From Eledone cirrhosa (Eukaryota), in the NCBI GenBank assembly GCA_964016885.1, contig OZ024747.1, positions 66,588,001 to 66,652,000 of the forward strand: 64,000 nucleotides of DNA. The letters run 5' to 3'. The translations under genes and the position numbers were made by a program. Below, in pieces: positions 1,353-62,843 of the stretch (positions within the stretch are counted from its first letter, which is position 1; each line of letters begins with the position of its first letter). The notes below the pieces were generated by a model. The model was not told where the DNA came from. It did no database searches and saw only the letters and a program-made list of their open reading frames with translations.

Positions 1353-1392
1353 TTTTCGCCTGAAGAAGGGCTTATGCCCGAAACGTCGTTCC
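1353..1392 (+). ncRNA. Minimal type I hammerhead ribozyme motif (Penelope-type)
   Basis: CTGAAGA-A-GGGC-TTAT-GCCC-GAAA-CG-TC; stem I only weakly paired; lies in a ~260-bp island between two (TA)n tracts. Confidence 0.65.
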
Positions 1393-1470
1393 CCACCCCC
1401 CACTCTCAAGAGCGTGAAACTAATAAACCTTTGTTTGTACTGCCTCTCTGTTTTGTTCCCGTTCCATTTT

Positions 1471-18644: not shown

Positions 18645-21600
18645 GTTCTTTGAGTCTCAGTCATTGATGTTAGTTAACTGGAAAGTTTGTTGAAATGAAT
18701 ATCAAGCCACTACCTGCAGCCTCAGATATTCAGGACGTATCGGAGGGTTCTTGCTGTTCCCAGCAAGCATGCCCTTTGAAGCGTTCCAAAAAGCGTGAAG
18801 GGGCCAATTTTCTTTAACCATCCCTGGAAACTTTTTGAGATAGTCCCTAGTGCGCCTATGACAATCGGGATCACTTTGACTTCATGGCAGTTCCAAATCC
18901 TTTTTACCTCCCACTTTAAGTCCTGGTATCGGTTAATTTTCTCCCTCTCCTTCTCTTGCACTCTCGTGTCGAATGGGCAGGCCACATCCACAATCAGGCA
19001 CGATCTTTTTTCCTTGTCCAAAACCACCAGGTCAGGTCTATTGTGTTCCAGTTTCTTGTCCGTCTGTATCCTAAAATCCCACAGCACCTTCACCTGATCG
19101 TTTTCTATTACAGACTTTGGCTTATGCTCATACCACTTCTCAGAATGTGGTAAATTGTTTACTTTGCATAGGTGCCAGTGGATCACCCTGCCCATCACAT
19201 CATGTCTCCAGCCTTTATAGTGAGTCTGGGCTAGGTGTTTACACTCGGATACAATGTGAGCCACAGTCTCCTCTCTCTCTCTCCACAGATCCTGCACAGT
19301 GGGATAGCCTCCTCCTTGTAAATATGGTGTTTCAACCACTTCGTTTTGAGGGCCTGCTCTTGCGCAGCCATTAGCATTCCTTTTGTAGCCTTTTTAAGGT
19401 CTCCGCTTTTCAACCAGTTCCATGTCTGTGGATCTCTGAATTCAGTTTTCTCATGAAGGCTGTTCTTTCTCCTTGTTGTTATTTCCTCCTTGGACATCCC
19501 CTGGTCTATTGTCCTCTCCTTCAGTACAATTCTGAGCATTGGCTCCTTATTATCAGACACGTATTTGTGTAGGTTGTTTTTCTCCATCTGAACACAGTCC
19601 TCTATGCTGATAAGACCTCTTCCACCTTCAGATCTCCTTACGTAGAGTCTATCGACATCACTCCTCTTGTGGAACATGTTGTAGATAGTCAATAGCTTCC
19701 TAGTCTTCCTATCCATTTCTTTTTGTTCAGCAACATTCCATCTCAGAATTCCCGCACTGTACCTAATAATAGACACAGCTCGGGAATCTACTGCACTTAT
19801 GGCATTCCTACTGTTCAGATGTGACTTTAATACGCTCCTTACTCTCCGAATGTATTGAGATCTTATCAATTCCTTCATTTTTTTGTTCTTGATGTAATCA
19901 GCCACAGAACACCCAAATACTTGTATCCTTCTTCAGTGTCAATTTCCTTTATCATCTCACCTGTTGGTACCTAGATTCCGTTGCTTCTGCTCAATTTACC
20001 CATCTTCATCACAAGGACTCCACACTTACTAATACCAAATTGCATACATATATCATTGCTGAAAATACGGACAGTGTCAACGAGCACATCCAACTCCTTC
20101 TCACTCTTCCCGAAGAGCTTAAGATCGTCCATGAAGAGGAGGTGATTCGCAGTACACTGGTCAGGGGCATCAGGGCAAGGACAAACAACAGAGAGGACAG
20201 ACTATCTCCCTCTCTTGATCTTCACGCTTCCCAAGGATTCTCCAGTTGATGTTAACTCTGTCTCCCAGGACTTCATACTTTTGCCCAACAACTGTCTGAT
20301 GTTATCTGCCACCTTGAAGATCTCCAGGCTTTTGGTGATCCAAGAATGAGGCACCATGTCAAATGCCTTTTTGTAGTCTATCCATCCCATGGCAAGACCA
20401 GTGTGTTTCCTCTTGCAATTCCTCATTACCATCTTATCAATAAGTAACTGGACCTTTGTACCACGTGACTTCTTTCGGCGTCCTTTCTGTTCGTCCTGTA
20501 ACAATTGTTTGTGTGGAGGTGATGGTAGATTTCCTGAGACATAATGCTTGTCAACAGTTTCCACATTACGGACAGACATGTGATAGGTCTATAGTTGGTA
20601 ACATCATTACCCTTGATTCGGTCTTTCATTATCAGAACTGTGGTACCTTTTGTCAACCACTCTGGTACATCACCTGACATCAAGCAGTCATTGAACATGG
20701 TTGTCAGTTTCGGGTGGAGGGATGTTATGTTTTTAATCCAATACCCCTGCACACCATCTGCGCCTGGTGATATCCAGTTGGCTAGTTTTTTGGCCTGCCC
20801 CTTAAGAGTTTCAACTGTGATACTCAAATCAGTTTGTTGGTGTGCCTGTTCACTGATCTCCTTCTGTACTGTCTCAATCCACGCTGCCTGGTCATTATGT
20901 TTAACATCCTGCTCCCATATTCCTCTCCAGAATGTTTTAGTTTGTTCCGCCTCAGGGATCAAGTCGTTGCCTCTTTCTTTCCCTTCAAGCTGTCCAAACA
21001 GCATCTTCTGGTTGTTGTCGAACATGCGGTTCTGTCTATACTGACTGACTCTGCTCTCGTATCGCCTGATTTTTGCACTCTTTGCTACAATGCGTTGCTT
21101 CAGTTCCTCTATGATAATATTTAGCTTTTTCCTCCTAGTTTTGTACTTTATTTCCAGTTTTTTTTAGTGTCTATGTTTTTTAGTGTCCCATTCAGTAGGG
21201 ACTCAAGCTTTCCAATGTCATTTCTCATTTCCCTGATTTGACCACTCAGTCGTTTCTTCCACCAAGGCTCTGCTCTTTCTTGTCTGTTGTTTCCTCTCGC
21301 TTTTATACCAAGTAGTTTCCTCACCGTATTTGCTGTTGCTTTTAGGATATTGTTGCACTGGTGGAGGCTCCTCGCCTCAAGGTATGGGATGACTTTGTTT
21401 ACCTTAGCTGTTGTTTCTTTTAACTTTTTCCTGTCTACAAATCTTAGGTTCATAGGTCTCCCACTATCATTGTTCAATTCATCTACCACTAAGTTTAGGA
21501 AATCAACCAAATCTTGTCCTAGCCCGTCAGCATTCATCTCCTCAGTGGACGTATCTCTGTTCCAGGTATTATTTATCTCAGCATTCAGATCATTGTCTGC

Positions 21601-22360
21601 TTCGGGTGGTTCCTCCGTTCTCTCGACCTCTTCACTTTCATTTCCAACTGGCTCGTTTGACTGGCATACTCCACCCTCCATCTCCAAGCTAATCTCTCTT
21701 CTCAGTTCCTCCAGTTCCAGCTCTCTTATCCACCCATTAGTTCTTATTACCCGAGCCTGCCCGGCCAGTTTTTGTTCATCTAATTTAAATGGACCAATCT
21801 CGTTCCAGATGTTATGCATCCTTTTCCTATAGCCTTTCTCCTTGGGGTTACTCTTCAGGTAACATTGCATAACAGTTCCATTCAATTCTTTCGTCCAGTT
21901 GGTTCTGGTCCCTTTCCTTCTTCTTCTTCCTCCGACACCAGCAGTATTTGGTTGACAGCCAGGTCCCTGCTGCTGATCTAGGGAGCACCTGTTGGGTGAG
22001 AGTCTGTCACATGACATTCTAGTCTCCATTTCACCGTTATTCGAACTGTTTAGGTTCGACATTTAAACACTCTTATCGAGGATTGGCAAATGTATCGTTA
22101 CATAACCACCGGTGAATTACTCGTCTCCGGTAGTTTCGTCACTCCACGTGACTTTTCTGTGGCATTATCACGCTGTAGACGAACCCAAATAAACAAACAA
22201 ACAAACAGGCAGAAAAAACCCCAAAAATGAATAAGCATAAGTTTCATTGTAATGAAGTGTTTGAATGTCTGACTTAGTTTTTCCCTTCCCTTCTCTGTCC
22301 GCCCGTTTGTTTTTCTCTTCATTTTTATTTCCTTTACGTTTTTCGTTGTTGCTGTGCTGC
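18645..22360 (-). mobile_element. R4/Dong-clade non-LTR retrotransposon, copy 1 (decayed)
   Basis: Single-ORF RT plus C-terminal CCHC and restriction-like endonuclease; both ends abut (TAT)n; 5' boundary approximate. Confidence 0.85.
18722..22062 (-). pseudogene. Frameshifted RT-REL polyprotein of Dong-like copy 1
   Basis: [33 protein letters not shown] (~20110-20147), CRIC..ETVAHIVSEC, RHD, NRPDLVV and KINRYQDL across five or more frames, with small deletions. Confidence 0.9.
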
Positions 22361-22431: not shown

Positions 22432-25400
22432 GTTGCATTTATCTTGCTTTATGTTCATACGAGTTATCACCAAGTCACAACCAGTGACCTCAAGAGACAA
22501 CAAGGTCCGCCATGTTCAAGAAAGAACATACATATTCACACATGCATCTTTAATGTTTAGACTTGTGATGTAATTATATTGACAGAATCTTCCTTAGTAT
22601 ATGGGCTGTTCCCATTAGTACTATCTTTTGTATTTCTCCTATACGCGGGTTTCCTGGGATTTGCGATATGTAATCATTAGACCCCTTAGGTATCATTCCC
22701 AGAGCGCCTACAACCACTGGTATTGTTTTAGTTCTCAATTTCCACATTTTTCCAATTTCTATCTCCAGGTCCTTATACTTGCTCAATTTTTCAAATGTTT
22801 TTATAGATACATTCTTGTCTATTGGAACAGACATATCAATTAGCAGGCATACCCTCTTTTGAAAGTCCTTCAATATTATATCAGGTCTATTTGCATCTAT
22901 TTTTCGGTCTGTTTGGATGCTAAAGTTCCACAAGATTGAGATGTGATCTTTTTCAAGTATGGGAGGTGGTTGATGCTCCCACCAATTCTTTTGATGGGGC
23001 ATGTCAAAATGCTTACACATTATCCAATGTATGTATTGTGCAGCTCTGTCATGCCTGTTTAGGTATTCGGTTGGAGCTATAGGACTGCACATTGAAATTA
23101 TATGGTCAATGGTCTCTGGTTGTTTTTTGCATACACGGCATAATGGGCTGCACCCATTTTTTATTATGTTGGCTTGGTAATTTTTTGTTGGCAGACACTG
23201 ATCTTGTGCTGATATAATCAGTCCTTCAGTCTCCGATTTCAGTCCAGAGGATGCCAACCACTGATGGGTTAAAGTTTTGTCAACATCAGGATTGTTAGCT
23301 CGCTCTGGGTATTTTCCATACAGAGGCTTTTCTTGCCATTTCTTAGCCAGTTTCTGTAGCAGTTCTTTCTTTGCAGTTACTTTTACCTGCTTTGCTTTTT
23401 CTGTGTTTTCCATTTCAGCAGTAAATGGGACTTCTGAAATTTGTAGTCCATTACTGTATCTTTGTGCATCTTTTGTAATGGAATATGATCTTTTGATGCT
23501 TTCGTGTTTCAAAACGAGTTTGATCATCCAATAACGTGATTCCCTTAGATATGTAGATAATCCAATTGTTGCAGTTTTCAACGCAATGTCTAACTGGATT
23601 AACCCACGTCCTCCTTCTTTCCTAGGGAGATATATTCTATCTATATCTGCCTTAGGGTGATGCATTATGTGCATGGTTAAGAATTTTCGAATTTTTGTAT
23701 CGAGCCTACGGATCTCTGTGCTTGACCAGTTGATGACATTGTAACTGTAGGTTACTACTGGTATGGCAAGCGTGTTTATGGCATCGATCCTATTCCTTGC
23801 ATTCAATTCCGTTCTTAAGATTGCTCTTACTCTGCGGTAACATTCCTTCCTAATCCTTTCCCTCATTGTCGAGTGCTTGATTCCGTCTCCTTCACAAACA
23901 CCTAGATATTTGTAAGTTTTTTCTTGATCAAGTTCTCTTATCACGTTCCCCCGATCAAGATTAATGTCTGAACTCTTCAGCAGCTTTCCTCTGGTGAACG
24001 TTGCTTTGGCGCATTTATCTAGTCCAAACTCCATTTTAATGTCATCACTGAACTGCTCCACAGTGGATAATAGCCCTTGCAATTGTTCATCATTTTTTGC
24101 AAATAGTTTCAGGTCATCCATGTAGAACAGGTGATTAATGGTTTTGTCATAGACTTTATATCCATGTTTTGTTTCATTGAGCATTTTACTTAATGGTATA
24201 AGTGCGATGCAGAATAAAAGCGGTGATAAAGAGTCACCCTGAAAAATTCCACAATTAATATTAACTTCTCCAGCTTCCAGTGATTTTGTTTCACTATTCA
24301 AAAGGAGTGTCGTTTTCCATGTCTTCATACTGAATGACAAACACCTCCTGACAACGGGGGATATTTTGAAAATCTCTAAACATTTTTCAATCCAACTGTG
24401 TGGCAAACTATCGAATGCTTTTTTATAATCTATCCAAGCAATCGATAGATTTTTGTGTCTATTATGACAATCTTCCAGTATCATTTTGTTAACCAGAAGC
24501 TGATCCTTACAGCCATATGAGCCTCGTTTACACCCTTTCTGCTCAATGGGAAATAGGTCATTTGTTATCAGGTGGTCATATGTGTATTCAGTTAGGACTG
24601 ATGTTAAAATTTTATACATTGTGGTCAAGCAAGTTATCGGTCTGTAATTTTTGGGATTGTTTGTCTCATCATTCTTCGGAAGCAGGAATGTAATGCCGTT
24701 AACTAGCCATGATGGTATCTTTTCTGGCTCCTTAACTATTTCATTGTAAAGTTGGGCTAACAGCTCATGAGACTCTGTGAAGGCATTTATCCAAAAGTTT
24801 TGTATTTTGTCTTTTCCTGGGGATTTCCATTTGCTGGTTTTTCTTAGAGCCAAGCGCAGCTATTCAACTGTTATATTTTCCCATATTTGTTCCTCAAGGT
24901 GAGCTGTATCTTTCATTTGTCTGTCTATCCATGGGGCATGTATGTTATGAACTTTTTCTTCGGCCCAGATCTTTTCCCAGAATTCTTGCACTTCCTCCTT
25001 GGGTGGTATTGATTTAGCAGTTATTGTTGACTTACCAATTTTTCTGTAGAAGTTTCTTTGGTTGTTTTTGAACATATTATTGTCCTTATAGAATCTAGAT
25101 CGTTTTTCAAAGCGCCTTATACGAGCAGCTTTGGCCGACACTTTTTGCTTGATTATTTCTATCAGCATGTCTATGTCACATGTTGATTTTATACTGTACT
25201 TTCTTTTCAATTTTCTAAGTTTAGTTTGTTTAACATATTCACCTACTTTATAGTTTGTTAAAATTTCTATGTCAGATCGGAGAAGGTTTATTTGGCGATT
25301 GATGTTCTCTTGCCAAGTAGATTTCTTGTGGGAATTCCTTTGTTTTTTCATCTTCACTCCACATAAGTGAGTGGTGACTTTAGCCGATGCATAATAGAGA

Positions 25401-26340
25401 TGATTTAAATCAGTAATGTTTAGTTTGTTTGTGATGATAATGTTTTTGAGAATTATGTTAGTCTTGTGTATTATCTTTTGGTTCTGTTTGGAGTTCTGGA
25501 TCTTAGGGAGGGTGTCTCGTTGCCCCATGTCAGATTCTTTCATTTTCATCCATTCGATCATAATTTCATCCTTCAAGTTGGCAAGTTCATTCTCATTCAT
25601 TTCTTTATCATTTACAATCTCATTATTTTCATTTGGAGTTTCATCCTGAGCATGCACTCCCTCCACTTTTTCGATCCTTTCTTTAATTTGTTCTGTTGCC
25701 AGTGATTCCGCCCCAACCCTGGGATTCGAAGTGTTACAGTTTACCTCGTTTTCACTGACACATGTTTCATTTTCCCTTCGCTGACTTTGTGCTAATAGCT
25801 TGATCTGATCAATTTCTATATCAGTTAGTAACTTTCTTCTTACAATATTTCTTCGTATATTGGCTAGTTTGTTACTGTCAATATAGCCTCTGTTTTCGGG
25901 ATGTTTCTTTTTCCAGTTGATATATGTCTGTTCTGTATTCGATGTCTTTGATGGGTAGTACATGGCAGTGTAGAAAGCCTCAAGGACTTCTTTATTATCT
26001 TCCCTTGACAATTTTTCTCTCTTTTTCTTTGGATTTCTTGGTGGTGAGCATGGAGGGCCAACAGTAGGAGTATTCCGGTTATGGGAGGTCTCCAGCTCCG
26101 AAGTGATGGGAAGGTTTGAACCATTAGCTGATTTTTCGACCCCAGTCTGGTTCCTCTCTGAGGGACGCGGCCCTTTTTTACCCGGGTGACGGCCGATCCG
26201 GTATGAGACACGGCTATTCCCCGCCGGCCGCCATCCTGGTATTTCTTGGTCACGGGGTTTTCTTTTTGTTGTTTTTTTTAAAATTGTTATTATCATGAGT
26301 GGTTCCTTAATGTGAGCATTGCGTGGCTTAAGAATGAAAT
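22432..26340 (-). mobile_element. R4/Dong-clade non-LTR retrotransposon, copy 2 (nearly intact, different family)
   Basis: ~140-bp 3' UTR followed by (TAA)n; long RT-REL ORF. Confidence 0.9.
22574..26296 (-). pseudogene. ~1240-codon RT + CCHC + REL endonuclease ORF with one in-frame TAG at 24860-24862
   Basis: Track ORFs 24860..26509 and 22574..24853 are in the same frame (…NITVE*LRLALRK…). Motifs [47 protein letters not shown]. Start at ATG 26296 is inferred. Confidence 0.92.
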
Positions 26341-26344
26341 TATT

Positions 26345-26395
26345 AATAACTGTCTCCACTCCAGGCACAAGGCCAGCAATCACCCAGTGCATTAC
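26345..26395 (-). mobile_element. SINE family A 3' tail fragment with clustered A>G changes
   Basis: Minus strand GTAATGCACTGGGTGATTGCTGGCCTTGTGCCTGGAGTGGAGACAGTTAT versus ...GGGTAATTGCTGGCCTTGTGCC(A/T)AAAGTAGAAACAATTAT in the other copies. Confidence 0.8.
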
Positions 26396-26979
26396 AATAA
26401 TATAATATAGTTTTTGTTGTAGTTGGCTGTTATTGTTGTTGGCTATGTCAGTGGTAGTGCCGGGGCTTTTTATATTGTTGGTGAGGAAGGGGTGAGCCAG
26501 CAGTCCCATAGTTGTTGATGTTGACGTTTGGCCGGTGGCCAGGTCACGAAGTCAATCTATTTATATCTTTTGCTAGCCTCTCCCTTGTCTAGTGATACCG
26601 CCACCTTCCTCTTTCTCTCTCAAGTTAACAGGGGAATAGTGGTGGTAGCAATGAAGGAGTGGTGGCGGCGGCGATGGGATAGTGGTAGCAGTGATGGATG
26701 GGGTGGGGTGGTGGCAGCGGTGGCGTTGTGGTTACTGATATGTAGTATCTATGAGTTTGTGTTCGTATGTTTAATATATATTATTATTATATATTGTGTT
26801 GACATATTCCCGTAAAATTGGAATTAAACATTTTGTTAAAATTTGAGACAATAATAATAGTAATTATTATTATGATGCTGGGATTGATGGTGGTGGTGGT
26901 GAAATTGCCGTTATCTGGCTGTTATATTTAATGTGATGGGATAGGTGGTGTATCAAGTTTCTGGTGTTGGTGAAATTTT

Positions 26980-41203: not shown

Positions 41204-41350
41204 TATTTTTATTTATATATATATATATATTTTTATTTATATATATATATATTTTTATATATATATATATATAACGAAGGAAATGTGGTAAGGAACCAGG
41301 TGGACCATAACGCACCAAAGTACTCAATACTTAGGGTAGTAGAGTGGGTA

Positions 41351-41647
<297 letters not shown>

Positions 41648-41832
41648 TATATATATAGATAGATAGAGATATAGTTTTCTGTATGAGAGTCACTAATGGG
41701 AAATAAATCGATCGGCAGTTGTAGACCACTAGATTAGATACATGGCTAACCTGCTGTATTACTCAACCTTACATATATATACACACATATATATATATAC
41801 ATATATACATATATATATATATATACATATAT

Positions 41833-42357
41833 CTATATATTTCCAGGGGTACTTAGTACATGTGGGGATATTAATCTTTTATATTTACTCCGTTATGTTG
41901 AGAACAAATGTGTTGTTTTATTTAGCTGCTATTTTTAGTGGCGTGATAGACAACACGTCTATGTTTCCTTCTGCTTCTACTAAGGGCTGGTTCATGCATA
42001 GATCAACTTTACGGCCTCATTCGATCCTGTGCTAGCTGGCAGGTGGCAATATATTTTGCCGTTCTTGGGATTTCTGTCCTAGGAAAGGAAAATGCTGTCT
42101 GATGATCCGAACATTTCCATTGGAGATCCCTAGGATCTCCAATCTTTTGTCAGGTGAAACCGTCGGTAAAAGCAAATGGATTAGGTAAATATTTAAATTA
42201 TATTTTTATTTATTTTGAGAAATTGTTTAAATTTTACTTGCTCCGCTTATCACAATTTTTAGTTTTGGTATGTCAAATTAATACCATAGAACAGCACTGT
42301 ATCATAGACACCCTATATATTTCCAGGGGTACTTAGTACCTGTGGGGATATTAATCT
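41833..42357 (+). mobile_element. ORF-less unit with 45-bp terminal direct repeats, embedded in (TA)n, carrying a hammerhead
   Basis: 41833-41877 and 42313-42357 differ at 1 base; 480-bp period; TA-rich runs on both sides. Confidence 0.7.
42093..42174 (+). ncRNA. Type I hammerhead ribozyme motif
   Basis: TGCTGT-[CTGATGA]-long stem II (ATTGGAGATCC/GGATCTCCAAT)-GAAA-CCGTCGG-TA-AAAGCA; predicted cut after 42168; one mismatch in stem I. Confidence 0.72.
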
Positions 42358-42358
42358 C

Positions 42359-42413
<55 letters not shown>

Positions 42414-42536
42414 ATGCTTTGGGAGGGTCATGTTGCCAATAAGAAACACACGCACAGGTTGCTTTCACTCCAATTTATTATAAATTAAATTTATAAATTT
42501 AAGAATTTATAAATTTCCGGTTGGTTGGTTGGTTGG

Positions 42537-42579
<43 letters not shown>

Positions 42580-44568: not shown

Positions 44569-44836
44569 GAACGCAGAAGTAAATATTTCGAAAAACATTG
44601 CAACCGAAGGAAGACGGGAAGACGATATATATATATATATATATATATATTAGTAAAAGGAAAAGAAAATGCTGAGAAATTGTTCCCAGTGAAAAATAGT
44701 TTAATTAGGAATAAGTAAAAATTAGTAATAATTATTGGTTAGTATTCAGTTTTAGTCTTAAGTTTTTACCGGTTGCGCATTTCTAATGCTTTTCAAAAAT
44801 AATCTTGAGATAGAACGCCTGTGATGTTTGCTCTAA

Positions 44837-44878
<42 letters not shown>

Positions 44879-44935
44879 ATACGAAGGAGCCATGGAAAAG
44901 TATAAGACCCTCATAGAACTGGACATGAAAGGAAT

Positions 44936-45595
44936 TTGCTCCCATTATACAGGAGCAAATCATGGAATAGCTTAGATAGGGCTAGACATAAGATAGGGAA
45001 AGCCACCTCATGGTACGACAACCAGAGATACCAGAGTGTCATGTTTGTGGACGCCACCCCTGGAGGGAAATTAGCTAACCAGTGTAGAAAGGCCCTGAGA
45101 AAGACCCACTTAAAAATAAAGGTGGTAGAAAAGCCAGGAACCACCATAAAATCCCTGATCAGCAAAACCTACCCTTTTAAGAAAACCCACTGTACCAATA
45201 GGAAATGTATAATATGTAAGGTGAACCCCCGGATAAACTGTAAAACTAGAAACGTAGTCTATAGCATAAGATGTACAGAGGGTACTTGCAGAAACATGAC
45301 AACAACATACATAGGTGAGACAGCTCGTAGCATAGGTGAAAGGATAGACCAACACTGGGGGGAACTAAAAGGACGAAAAAACGGGTCAGTACTATACGAA
45401 CATGCTAGACAACAACATGACGGTAACATAGACAACATAGAAATTAGAATAATATCTAAACATAGAAATGACCCAGCAGATAGGCAAATCAGAGAGGACA
45501 GTGAAATAGAAATTAGAAGACCAAAGCTAAACAGAAAGAATGAATGGAATAACAACAACACCCAAACAAACAACACTGACCTAAGAGAAGTATAA
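44936..45595 (+). pseudogene. C-terminal linker and GIY-YIG endonuclease of a Penelope-like element (RT missing)
   Basis: CTNRKCIIC knuckle, NVVYSIRC...C...YIGETARS..ERI..H, LYEH, R.IRE..EI...P.LN; the listed start is TTG next to a frameshift. Confidence 0.85.
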
Positions 45596-45839
45596 ATAAG
45601 TAAATAAAATAAGAGAAATAAATAAATAAATGAATACATACACAAGCACAATAACAACAAGCACATAAACACACACTAGTCACCCATCACACAACAAACA
45701 TAACACTATACACACACGCAAACGCATGCGCAAAGAAAACAAAATAAAATAAACAAACAAGCAAATAAATAAATAAATAAATATATAGACAGACTGAATA
45801 AAAATGGCGTAGACATACAACACAAGAGGAGGAAAATAT

Positions 45840-45902
45840 AACACCACTGACGATGTTGCAGATGTGCAACGAAAGATTTATGATAAACTATATATATGTG
45901 TT
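45840..45902 (+). ncRNA. Hammerhead motif in Penelope 3' UTR/pLTR
   Basis: CTGACGA-t-GTTGCA-GATG-TGCAAC-GAAA-GaTTTATgATAAAC-TA; stem I imperfect (AACAC/GTGTT displaced by TA units). Confidence 0.65.
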
Positions 45903-46133
45903 TGTGTCTATATTGTATCTGTATTATTTTTTGACCGTCGGTCAGTCAATGGCAACATTGAGGACCGAGTAAGTTAGATTGCAGATATAAAAGACAGCGA
46001 GAAGCGAAAACCAACCAAACAGTGAGTGTGTTCTGTTATTAATTCTGGCAATATTACACAAATATGACCCTCCCCAAGTATAACAATATTTGTTTCGACA
46101 CACGATTTCATATAAAAAAACCTCGCAAAACTA

Positions 46134-46164
<31 letters not shown>

Positions 46165-60780: not shown

Positions 60781-62359
60781 TTCTTTATTAGCCACAAGGG
60801 CGCAACAAGAAAGGGGACAATACAAAGACATGCCGGGGATTTTACATACAGTCGTGTAAAAAATATAAAAACAAACAATTTCAACAATCGAAATCCCCAA
60901 TAGGGGGGGGGGGGGGCGCCACAAATGGGTTGTTTAATACCCCGTCGATAGAACAACCCTCAACTCAAGGAGCGTGTTGTGCAAGTGCTCCTTTCTTCCT
61001 TTTGCTCTCTTCCTCAACCTACAAGCTTATAAACAGAGAAGGCCCAATCACTCGGGCCATTTTCGCTTCATTCACCCAGCTTTCAGTAAATTTACTGGGG
61101 TGCAGTGCCTCTCTCTCCACCCTGATTCTCCTTCTAAAGTGATACTTAAAGAATGGAATCAATTGTTGTCCGGAGAGAAAGGCATCTGTCCTCAGTCCTC
61201 TCAACCTCGTCCACCATATAACTTCTTTCACCATAGCCACCGTACAGAGGAAAACCGCCTCTCTTTCGTTTTTGAAAGAGTCTGGCGGTTTGATCCTTAC
61301 TATGGACTCGGCAGTCAACTGTATTTGTCCCATACGCGACAGCAGTTGTTCTGCATAGTTCCACAGGTCGCTTACGCCCGGGCAGTGTACAATTGCGTGC
61401 AGAACTGTTTCAATGTCCTGCGCACATCTTGGACACGTCCTCTTGGAAGGATCCCTGCCAGGGCGTCCGTGCCTGTAGATCTTGTCACGAACCGGTAGAG
61501 CTCCTCGGTAGCACTGCCAGGCCAGGGACCTCTGGAAGTTGTCCATAGGTCCCGGGCGGAAAGTCCTACCAAACATACTGGTGAGCTCATCGTCTTCGAC
61601 GCCCAGAGTCTCTCCGAGCACGTCGTCGCCCTTGTAACGTACAATCCCTCTATAGAATGTCGAAGTGGAGTCTCCACTGATTGCTGCGCCCGCTTGCCAG
61701 AGGACTGTGAGCGCCTGAGCGCATTCAATGTGCCAGGCGCCCATCGTTTTCGGTCTTTTCTTCACCCAGGACTGCAGCTCCGTTAGCGAGACGAGCTGTG
61801 GGAAAGCCTGTCTCACAAACGGTGCCCACACCGGTTGGGGGTCGGTGAGGAATACCTGGAGATGCCGCAGCCTCAGCGCATGTTTGCGCATCATCAGCCA
61901 CGGCATTCCCAGCCCTCCGTTGGAAGGGTGCTGACAGCAGACAGATCTCCTCACCAGCGGAGCCTGCTTCTTCCACAGAAACTGGAAGAGCATGCGTTCC
62001 ATCTTGGCGAGGTGTTCACGGGGACAAGGCACGACAGTCAAGCGGTAGTAGATGACGGACGCTATGAAAGTGTTCGCCACCTCCGCTCGACCTTTCAAGG
62101 ACAGTTTGCACTCTGCCCACTTCTGAGTGAGTGCAAACACCTTGGCCGTGACCTCGTTCCAGTTTTTCTCCACCTGGAGGTCTGGACCGAACCAGACCCC
62201 GAGCAATTTCACCGGTCCGTCCATCCAGCGTCCAACGACGCTGTCGGATGTCATCGGTTTGCCTCTCCACGTACCGAGTTGCAAACCGACAGACTTGTCT
62301 GGGTTTAGTTTTGCTCCCGTCAGCGTTTCGTATTCTTTCAGTATGTTGCCGATCACCCC

Positions 62360-62360
<1 letters not shown>
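60781..62360 (-). mobile_element. 5'-truncated Tx1/L1-clade LINE inserted in (GATA)n
   Basis: GATA tracts abut both ends (to 60780 and from 62361); AATAAA immediately before the (TATC)n tail. Confidence 0.88.
61019..62360 (-). pseudogene. Uninterrupted C-terminal ~447 codons of ORF2 (RT thumb and zinc-binding region)
   Basis: GAKLNPDKS, VKLLGVWF, LSLKGRA, GGLG.P, CPRC..ETVLHAIVHC; the track N-terminus is microsatellite. Confidence 0.88.
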
Positions 62361-62401
<41 letters not shown>

Positions 62402-62843
62402 GAGGGAGCGAGAGAAATAGAGATACAACTAGAGATACAGACAGGCAGATATGTAGGTAGACAGATATATACAAACGTAGATAGTTATATATTGTTGTTG
62501 TTATAAACTATAGGCCCCCGAGTTGGATATGTCTTGTAATCGCTGTGTTTAAGAGAGTGGATTAGGGAGGAAAATATCAAACCTCATACATATAATATAC
62601 TATATTATAATATATTATATGTATAGACACATACATTATATGTATAGACACATATATTATATGTATAGACACATATATATATATGTGTGTGTGTGTAGTA
62701 TATGTATAGACACATATATTATATGTATAGATACATATATATATATGTTTGTGTGTAGTATATGTAATAAATACATAATTATATATATATATGTATATAT
62801 GTATATATGTATGTATATATATATACACAAACACACATACATA

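Follow-up and report, generated by a model that had tools for sequence, protein, structure and literature searches.

We found that the plus-strand insertion at 41833..42363 of the window (the whole 64,000-nt stretch of Eledone cirrhosa DNA analysed) is probably an animal non-LTR retrozyme seated in (TA)n. The RT/GIY-YIG protein of a Penelope-like element (PLE) likely moved it in trans, and its template was likely a circular RNA. We are highly confident that the element is non-autonomous and moved by a PLE, and reasonably confident that its template was a circle.

The insertion is a single arm made of one full non-coding unit (41878..42363, GC 36 %) and, upstream of it, a 5'-truncated piece of another (41833..41877). 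A degenerate (TA)n tract lies on the left (41770..41840) and a (TA)23.5 tract on the right (42363..42409), with no target-site duplication discernible inside (TA)n. The original prediction had described a non-coding unit with recurring ends in TA runs, and this is borne out: at a period of 480 the copy gives 47 of 60 matches, compared with 10-22 at periods of 470-489, and the upstream piece agrees with 42313-42357 at 44 of 45 positions. The longest ATG-started frame in the unit is 46 aa, no ORF with RT and GIY-YIG domains was found in it, and units abut directly in the family; ARAGORN returned no tRNA genes. The predicted fold of the unit (41878-42357) has a z-score of -5.9 relative to shuffled sequences.

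Two boundaries had to be redrawn. The right end, formerly placed at 42357, lies at 42363, where the element stops (...CTCCTTTT then ATAT) as do most family ends of this type. This junction between CCTTTT and ATAT (42358..42367, plus strand) is the second of two fixed 3' ends of the family and is termed site B. The first, site A (42255..42261, plus strand), a putative start of reverse transcription about 90 nt past the predicted ribozyme cut, is read through in the window copy, and the "tail" of ~100 nt between the two sites (42262..42363) contains two predicted hairpins with a weak z-score of -1.8. What had been taken for a 45-bp terminal redundancy is no defined terminal repeat. The upstream piece begins at an internal TATATA matching the target. 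The 5' ends of the family spread across the unit (7 of 197 arms begin at unit position 434-440, like this one), so this start is simply the place where a partial tandem was truncated on its 5' side. We infer that the window copy results from one pass primed at site B, of about 1.1 rounds.

The type I hammerhead spans 42093..42174 on the plus strand. Motif inspection places the core at 42099-42105 (CUGAUGA) and 42156-42159 (GAAA), the near-palindromic stem III ACCGTCGGT at 42159-42167 and the predicted cut after 42168 (GUA), exactly where each had been announced. The core is intact, as described, but in the window copy stem I (42093-42098/42169-42174) has one G.A mismatch (42097/42170), and the 50-nt stem II (42106-42155), which ends in an 11-bp distal hairpin, has U.U at its base. 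Predicted energies are -19.0 kcal/mol for the catalytic fold vs -28.3 kcal/mol for a non-catalytic fold, while the 9-nt stem III is predicted to self-pair as a dimer at -11.3 kcal/mol. The dimer pairing and the weaker catalytic fold of the monomer would fit cleavage as a dimer or with the help of a protein, both of which have been described (PMC4209133, PMC11167929). No Rfam match at the gathering score was found within the window.

Stem statistics were taken from 98 motifs passing a core-based pattern, which are related copies and not independent events. Pair 1.2 of stem I is C.A in 54, T-A in 25, A-T in 11, C-G in 4, G-C in 2, another combination in 1 and G.A in the window copy alone. Pair 10.1 of stem II is U.U in 77 and G-C in 12, and pair 10.3 is C-G in 57, T-A in 25 and T-G in 10. 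The core and the GUH triplet are conserved in these motifs while stems I and II covary, and on sequence comparison the hammerhead stems covary across sister families. Axolotl HHR_Amex2, with the same U.U at the base of stem II, cleaves nonetheless (PMC7229834), and for Xenopus retrozymes eight of nine dimers are reported uncleaved in vitro (10.64898/2026.07.22.740005). Any self-cleavage activity of the window copy may be low.

A first look over the 3.0-Gb genome of the species (G000) gave 2425 candidates, and the best 40 of them, when scored, had main matches 88-96 % identical to the unit. Exact patterns matched 76 times at the right end and 208 times just past the cut, the latter corresponding to ~320 segments after correction for pattern capture (27/42), and a looser pattern found 1173 hammerheads of related type genome-wide. 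We mapped the unit, ~485 bp long in this family, on 140 loci drawn from the first look and both patterns and obtained, with duplicates removed, 135 elements comprising 197 arms. Long copies, and those carrying the motifs searched for, are over-represented in this sample; in addition, the mapping script mis-joined a few arms that have internal deletions (L023, L066, L126) and failed to pick up inverted arms that are very short. Among the 135 elements, four clean arms (L021, L097, L191, L205) carry at least two consecutive complete hammerheads, L023 and L066 having been dropped from this count for their internal deletions; the window copy carries no such pair.

The 3' ends of the arms are confined to two places. 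Site B ends 95 of the 197 arms (unit 474-480, then CCTTTT), 91 of them into (TA)n, and site A, ~100 nt away, ends 87 (unit 370-385), 82 of them into (TA)n. Together the two sites account for 182 arms, the remaining 15 ending elsewhere, and 173 of the 182 continue into (TA)n. The 135 mapped elements and these TA flanks bear out the proposal of a multi-copy, TA-targeted, non-coding, retrozyme-like family. The differently permuted ends anticipated for its copies were found on the 5' side, where ends are scattered over the entire unit; the 3' side is instead fixed at two sites, which fits PLE priming.

Inverted copies pair the two sites with each other. Inverted elements make up 59 of the 135, and among the 56 with two arms 47 combine A with B, one is A+A, none is B+B and eight have one other end; in 40 loci chosen without an end motif we counted ten A+B and one A+A. 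The two 5' ends of an inverted copy mostly meet within a few bases. Two fixed 3' ends, 5' truncation, partial tandems and inverted A/B arms form the insertion signature of PLEs, in keeping with the Penelope-type mobilisation originally suggested.

In the window family, we counted 168 arm passages across the predicted cut site and four arm stops lying 3 nt or less from it, compared with 3.7 stops expected. One in 100 among the just-past-cut matches listed begins at the predicted cut; L006 and L024 start exactly there and were considered as a sign of 5' ends piling up at the cut, a reading we rejected as the counts equal chance. The lack of such a pile-up suggests that a cleaved linear monomer is not the usual template and agrees with the uncut multimeric or circular RNA of the original prediction. 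Units of one insertion also share subfamily alleles, with a mismatch of 0.075 for direct (25 pairs) and 0.096 for inverted neighbours (48 pairs), compared with 0.40 for random partners and with lowest values of 0.23 (direct) and 0.25 (inverted) in 1000 random draws. No column in this comparison has more than three changes in one direction. At unit position 417, upstream units seemed to differ in allele from terminal ones (p = 3e-6), but this was discarded as a gap-placement artefact of a 1-nt indel. One locus (L126) extends over parts of three units; of 30 junction matches, none has a second junction beside it. This family has short arms, averaging 329 nt and reaching ~770 nt in the longest clean one, so the strongest evidence for a circle comes from a sister family.

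This young sister family has a 457-bp unit, 63-70 % identical to that of the window, and was studied on 19 loci, fetched with multi-unit ones first from among 100 of the 1173 hammerhead matches. In all eight of its two-arm loci whose outer ends both lie at fixed sites, one end is A and the other B. One insertion, at C1:156,425,693-156,438,639 of G000 (L319, L320), is 12.95 kb long and consists of 19 units in an arm that stops at site A and nine in an inverted arm that stops at site B; (TA)n follows both ends. Its units measure 456-457 nt, with 17 differences across 12,953 nt. Two variants are present in all 28 units of both arms, and a T>G change occurs in six non-adjacent units scattered over both arms. 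When one of the two variants was searched genome-wide, a search that covered one of eight locus-wide variants in one assembly, 28 of 28 matches fell inside this locus. Twenty-eight units sharing a private variant are the footprint expected of a reverse transcriptase going round one circular RNA, and the simplest reading of the insertion is repeated copying of one unit-length template, i.e. a circle. This favours the circular over the merely multimeric template among those first proposed. A master array outside this assembly, or an assembly error in the number of units, may also lie behind the locus.

Similar variants are found elsewhere in the sister family. In the ten youngest loci, five of the eight multi-unit ones have locus-wide variants of their own, three of them in both arms. 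Read on the RNA strand, the eight locus-wide variants include four A>G and two C>T, with no T>C or G>A. The older family of the window has no strand bias of substitutions (p > 0.3 for all six pairs), so the idea of RNA-level changes draws on these eight variants.

Another sister family contains an older tandem array of ~29 units (13.3 kb) at C3:162,363,033-162,376,347 of G000 (L231, L275), whose start lies at a truncated position within (TA)n and whose end is site A. Its hammerhead, with canonical G-C and GUC, has 227 pattern matches genome-wide. The array is mostly star-like, with a mean divergence of 8.8 % between 23 units and 177 singleton alleles, and contains a few later local duplications (two units are 0.4 % apart); by itself it is not decisive. 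A distant non-coding hammerhead family of ~660 bp (L230:6288-6995, L289-L318; 3988 first-look candidates) also forms partial tandems and inverted arms, with one fixed end at 561.

We considered it unlikely that this PLE-mobilised element is copied from linear, uncut multimers transcribed at tandem master loci, with the hammerhead as a passenger or late cutter and arrays growing after insertion by unequal exchange. Such a template would leave 5' ends without trace of the cut site, as seen here, and uncut RNA is the main substrate of an anole PLE in vitro, where cleavage is not needed (PMC11167929). Local amplification has been proposed for retrozymes (10.64898/2026.07.22.740005), and the array of ~29 units has some later local duplication. 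However, a linear multimer requires that 19 or more units of a master carry these variants, and for the variant tested no such master is present in the assembly. Local expansion, for its part, leaves unexplained both the private variants found in the two inverted arms of three loci and the T>G change scattered over six non-adjacent units. Locus-wide private variants and homogeneous units would equally be expected if the reverse transcriptase jumped repeatedly from the 5' end to the 3' end of a linear unit-length RNA, mimicking a circle. We regard this as very improbable: at least 26 flawless jumps would be needed in one insertion whose units remain 456-457 nt long, and neither 5' ends nor indels are in excess at the cut. 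A circular template remains our preferred reading.

Another alternative is that each copy is nothing but the pLTR of a long autonomous PLE whose 5' truncation stopped short of including the ORF; PLE copies mostly are 5'-truncated (PMC8557442). An autonomous PLE family in the same genome has ends at +82 (12 copies) and +148-150 (16 copies) past its own hammerhead, the two being paired in five of five inverted copies. Its protein scores 28 bits with RVT_1 (cut-off 29.6) and 28.3 with GIY-YIG (cut-off 22.6), and in a full-length copy both end sites immediately precede the ORF. The mini-element has the order of that pLTR, namely hammerhead, site A, tail and site B, minus the ORF. We nevertheless give the pLTR explanation almost no credence: in 64 of 197 arms one unit passes into the next with no ORF in between, and the precise junction (30 matches) largely refutes it. 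No PLE ORF was found joined to the unit; PLE protein matches occur in 16 of 199 family loci, and the two closest, read base by base, belong to other PLE families, one situated beyond a TA tract and the other joined by its own end. In the loci examined the copies are thus not fragments of a longer pLTR, the outcome named beforehand as adverse, despite their fixed 3' ends.

To look for the PLE acting in trans, we examined ~40 of 150 listed GIY-YIG loci. Five PLE 3' regions compared with the unit gave z-scores of at most 1.8 over shuffles, so that no autonomous PLE with similarity to the unit was found among them; in the same comparison sister units scored 54-60 and the distant ~660-bp family 4.2. 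By blastn the unit had AT-rich matches only in 30 GIY-YIG loci and none in 30 loci of the PLE family neighbouring it in the window. A sister tandem beside a PLE ORF (L239) was rejected as a joined partner, with ~220 bp of (TA)n lying between the two. At L216:1240-1592 a unit arm and the end of a PLE copy, in the same orientation, are fused with no TA tract in between; this fusion may be a template switch or an insertion with deletion. PLEs with a cysteine (Zn-finger-like) linker also carry the GAAACCG..GTA hammerhead end, one group having the U.U base as well, and on these shared motifs they appear to be the likelier partners. By their cysteine linker these PLEs may belong to the clades Neptune/Nematis.

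Several other elements lie in the window. At 42410-42540 (minus strand) the end of a related PLE family stands tail-to-tail with it in the same TA tract. A 5'-truncated PLE at 44875-46135 (plus strand), with a GIY-YIG-like C-terminus at 44906-45595 and a minimal hammerhead near 45846-45885, belongs to a very large young family (37,757 first-look candidates, the best 150 at 96-100 % amino acid identity, open frames to 1218 aa); it has no similarity to the mini-element, and Pfam gave no match on the fragment. PLE 3' ends with a U3-A8 variant of the hammerhead core and a CCGG stem III are found near 44802 (minus) and 33540 (plus), and a further short hammerhead-like motif matches the pattern at 1354-1396 (plus). 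The 190-bp TA-flanked element at 41274-41463, which has a long internal inverted repeat and is present in 55 of 277 sequences compared, is probably another TA-targeted repeat. Long RT-like ORFs at 18722-22062, 22574-26551 and 61019-62428 (all minus) may represent LINE retrotransposons, which they resemble by their motifs.

Under the circular reading, tandem loci would be transcribed, the ribozyme would cut as a dimer or helped by protein, and the cut unit would be ligated to a circle. A PLE protein would nick AT-rich DNA and begin reverse transcription at an internal position of the RNA, from site B for one strand; where copies are inverted, the opposite strand would be primed from site A. The enzyme would read across the sealed cut site until falling off, and the free end would join the target or the other cDNA by microhomology. 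In its most specific form, which we put forward tentatively and hold to be somewhat less than an even bet, both strands of a (TA)n break are primed on one circular ribozyme RNA at the two fixed sites, with up to 19 rounds per arm and changes in the RNA copied into every unit. If so, retrozyme satellites would be born full-length in a single step, and RNA-level changes would feed their variation.

PLE mobilisation of animal retrozymes and circular-RNA templates for PLE-type tandems have been proposed since 2014 (PMC4209133, PMC7229834), and the link between PLEs and retrozymes is supported by co-occurrence and trees (10.64898/2026.07.22.740005). In these sources, circular templates and PLE mobilisation are proposed or deduced from such evidence and not from insertion structure (PMC7229834; 10.64898/2026.07.22.740005). 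New here are the direct reading of the PLE end signature from retrozyme insertions and, in a young insertion, a molecule-level footprint of one template copied repeatedly. Among the papers listed by our literature searches, no title or abstract opening reports PLE ends together with a single-template footprint on retrozyme insertions; supplements, which lie outside that search, may hold similar structures, and hammerheads are not mentioned in the available text of PMC13282606. The question becomes testable in vitro with a defined RNA of 457 nt, its two start sites and the young PLE families that this genome also contains.

As far as the consulted parts of the reports describe them, EN+ PLEs likewise have partial tandems, 5' truncation, inverted copies, a tail at one end, two internal RT starts past the hammerhead, microsatellite targets and a palindromic stem III (PMC8557442, PMC11167929, PMC4209133). 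For PLEs in general, the tail is given as 30-40 bp at one end, next to partial tandems, inverted 5' copies, a (TA)n bias and non-autonomous derivatives (PMC8557442), and the anole PLE in vitro nicks AT-rich DNA on both strands and starts reverse transcription at two internal sites bounding the tail (PMC11167929). The mini-element differs in having no ORF and a tail of ~100 nt instead of 30-40 (PMC8557442), and arms of its sister family reach 19 units (compare PMC8557442, PMC11167929, PMC4209133). Chlamys PLEs such as MRC1 are also non-autonomous and form pLTRs and multicopy head-to-tail insertions; they are algal and have 3' sequence in common with their partners, whereas no sequence-sharing partner was found here and our unit has a canonical-core hammerhead (PMC8557442). 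Animal non-LTR retrozymes, as described in the same limited set of sources, are likewise non-coding with a GC below 50 % and one type I hammerhead per unit, range from monomers to long tandems and co-occur with PLEs (PMC7229834; 10.64898/2026.07.22.740005). Compared with them, the units here are 457-489 nt long with a 50-nt stem II; partial copies predominate, inversion is frequent, and there are two fixed ends of the PLE type in (TA)n. In its testable features the unit is an animal non-LTR retrozyme and not an autonomous PLE, an element of a kind already known.
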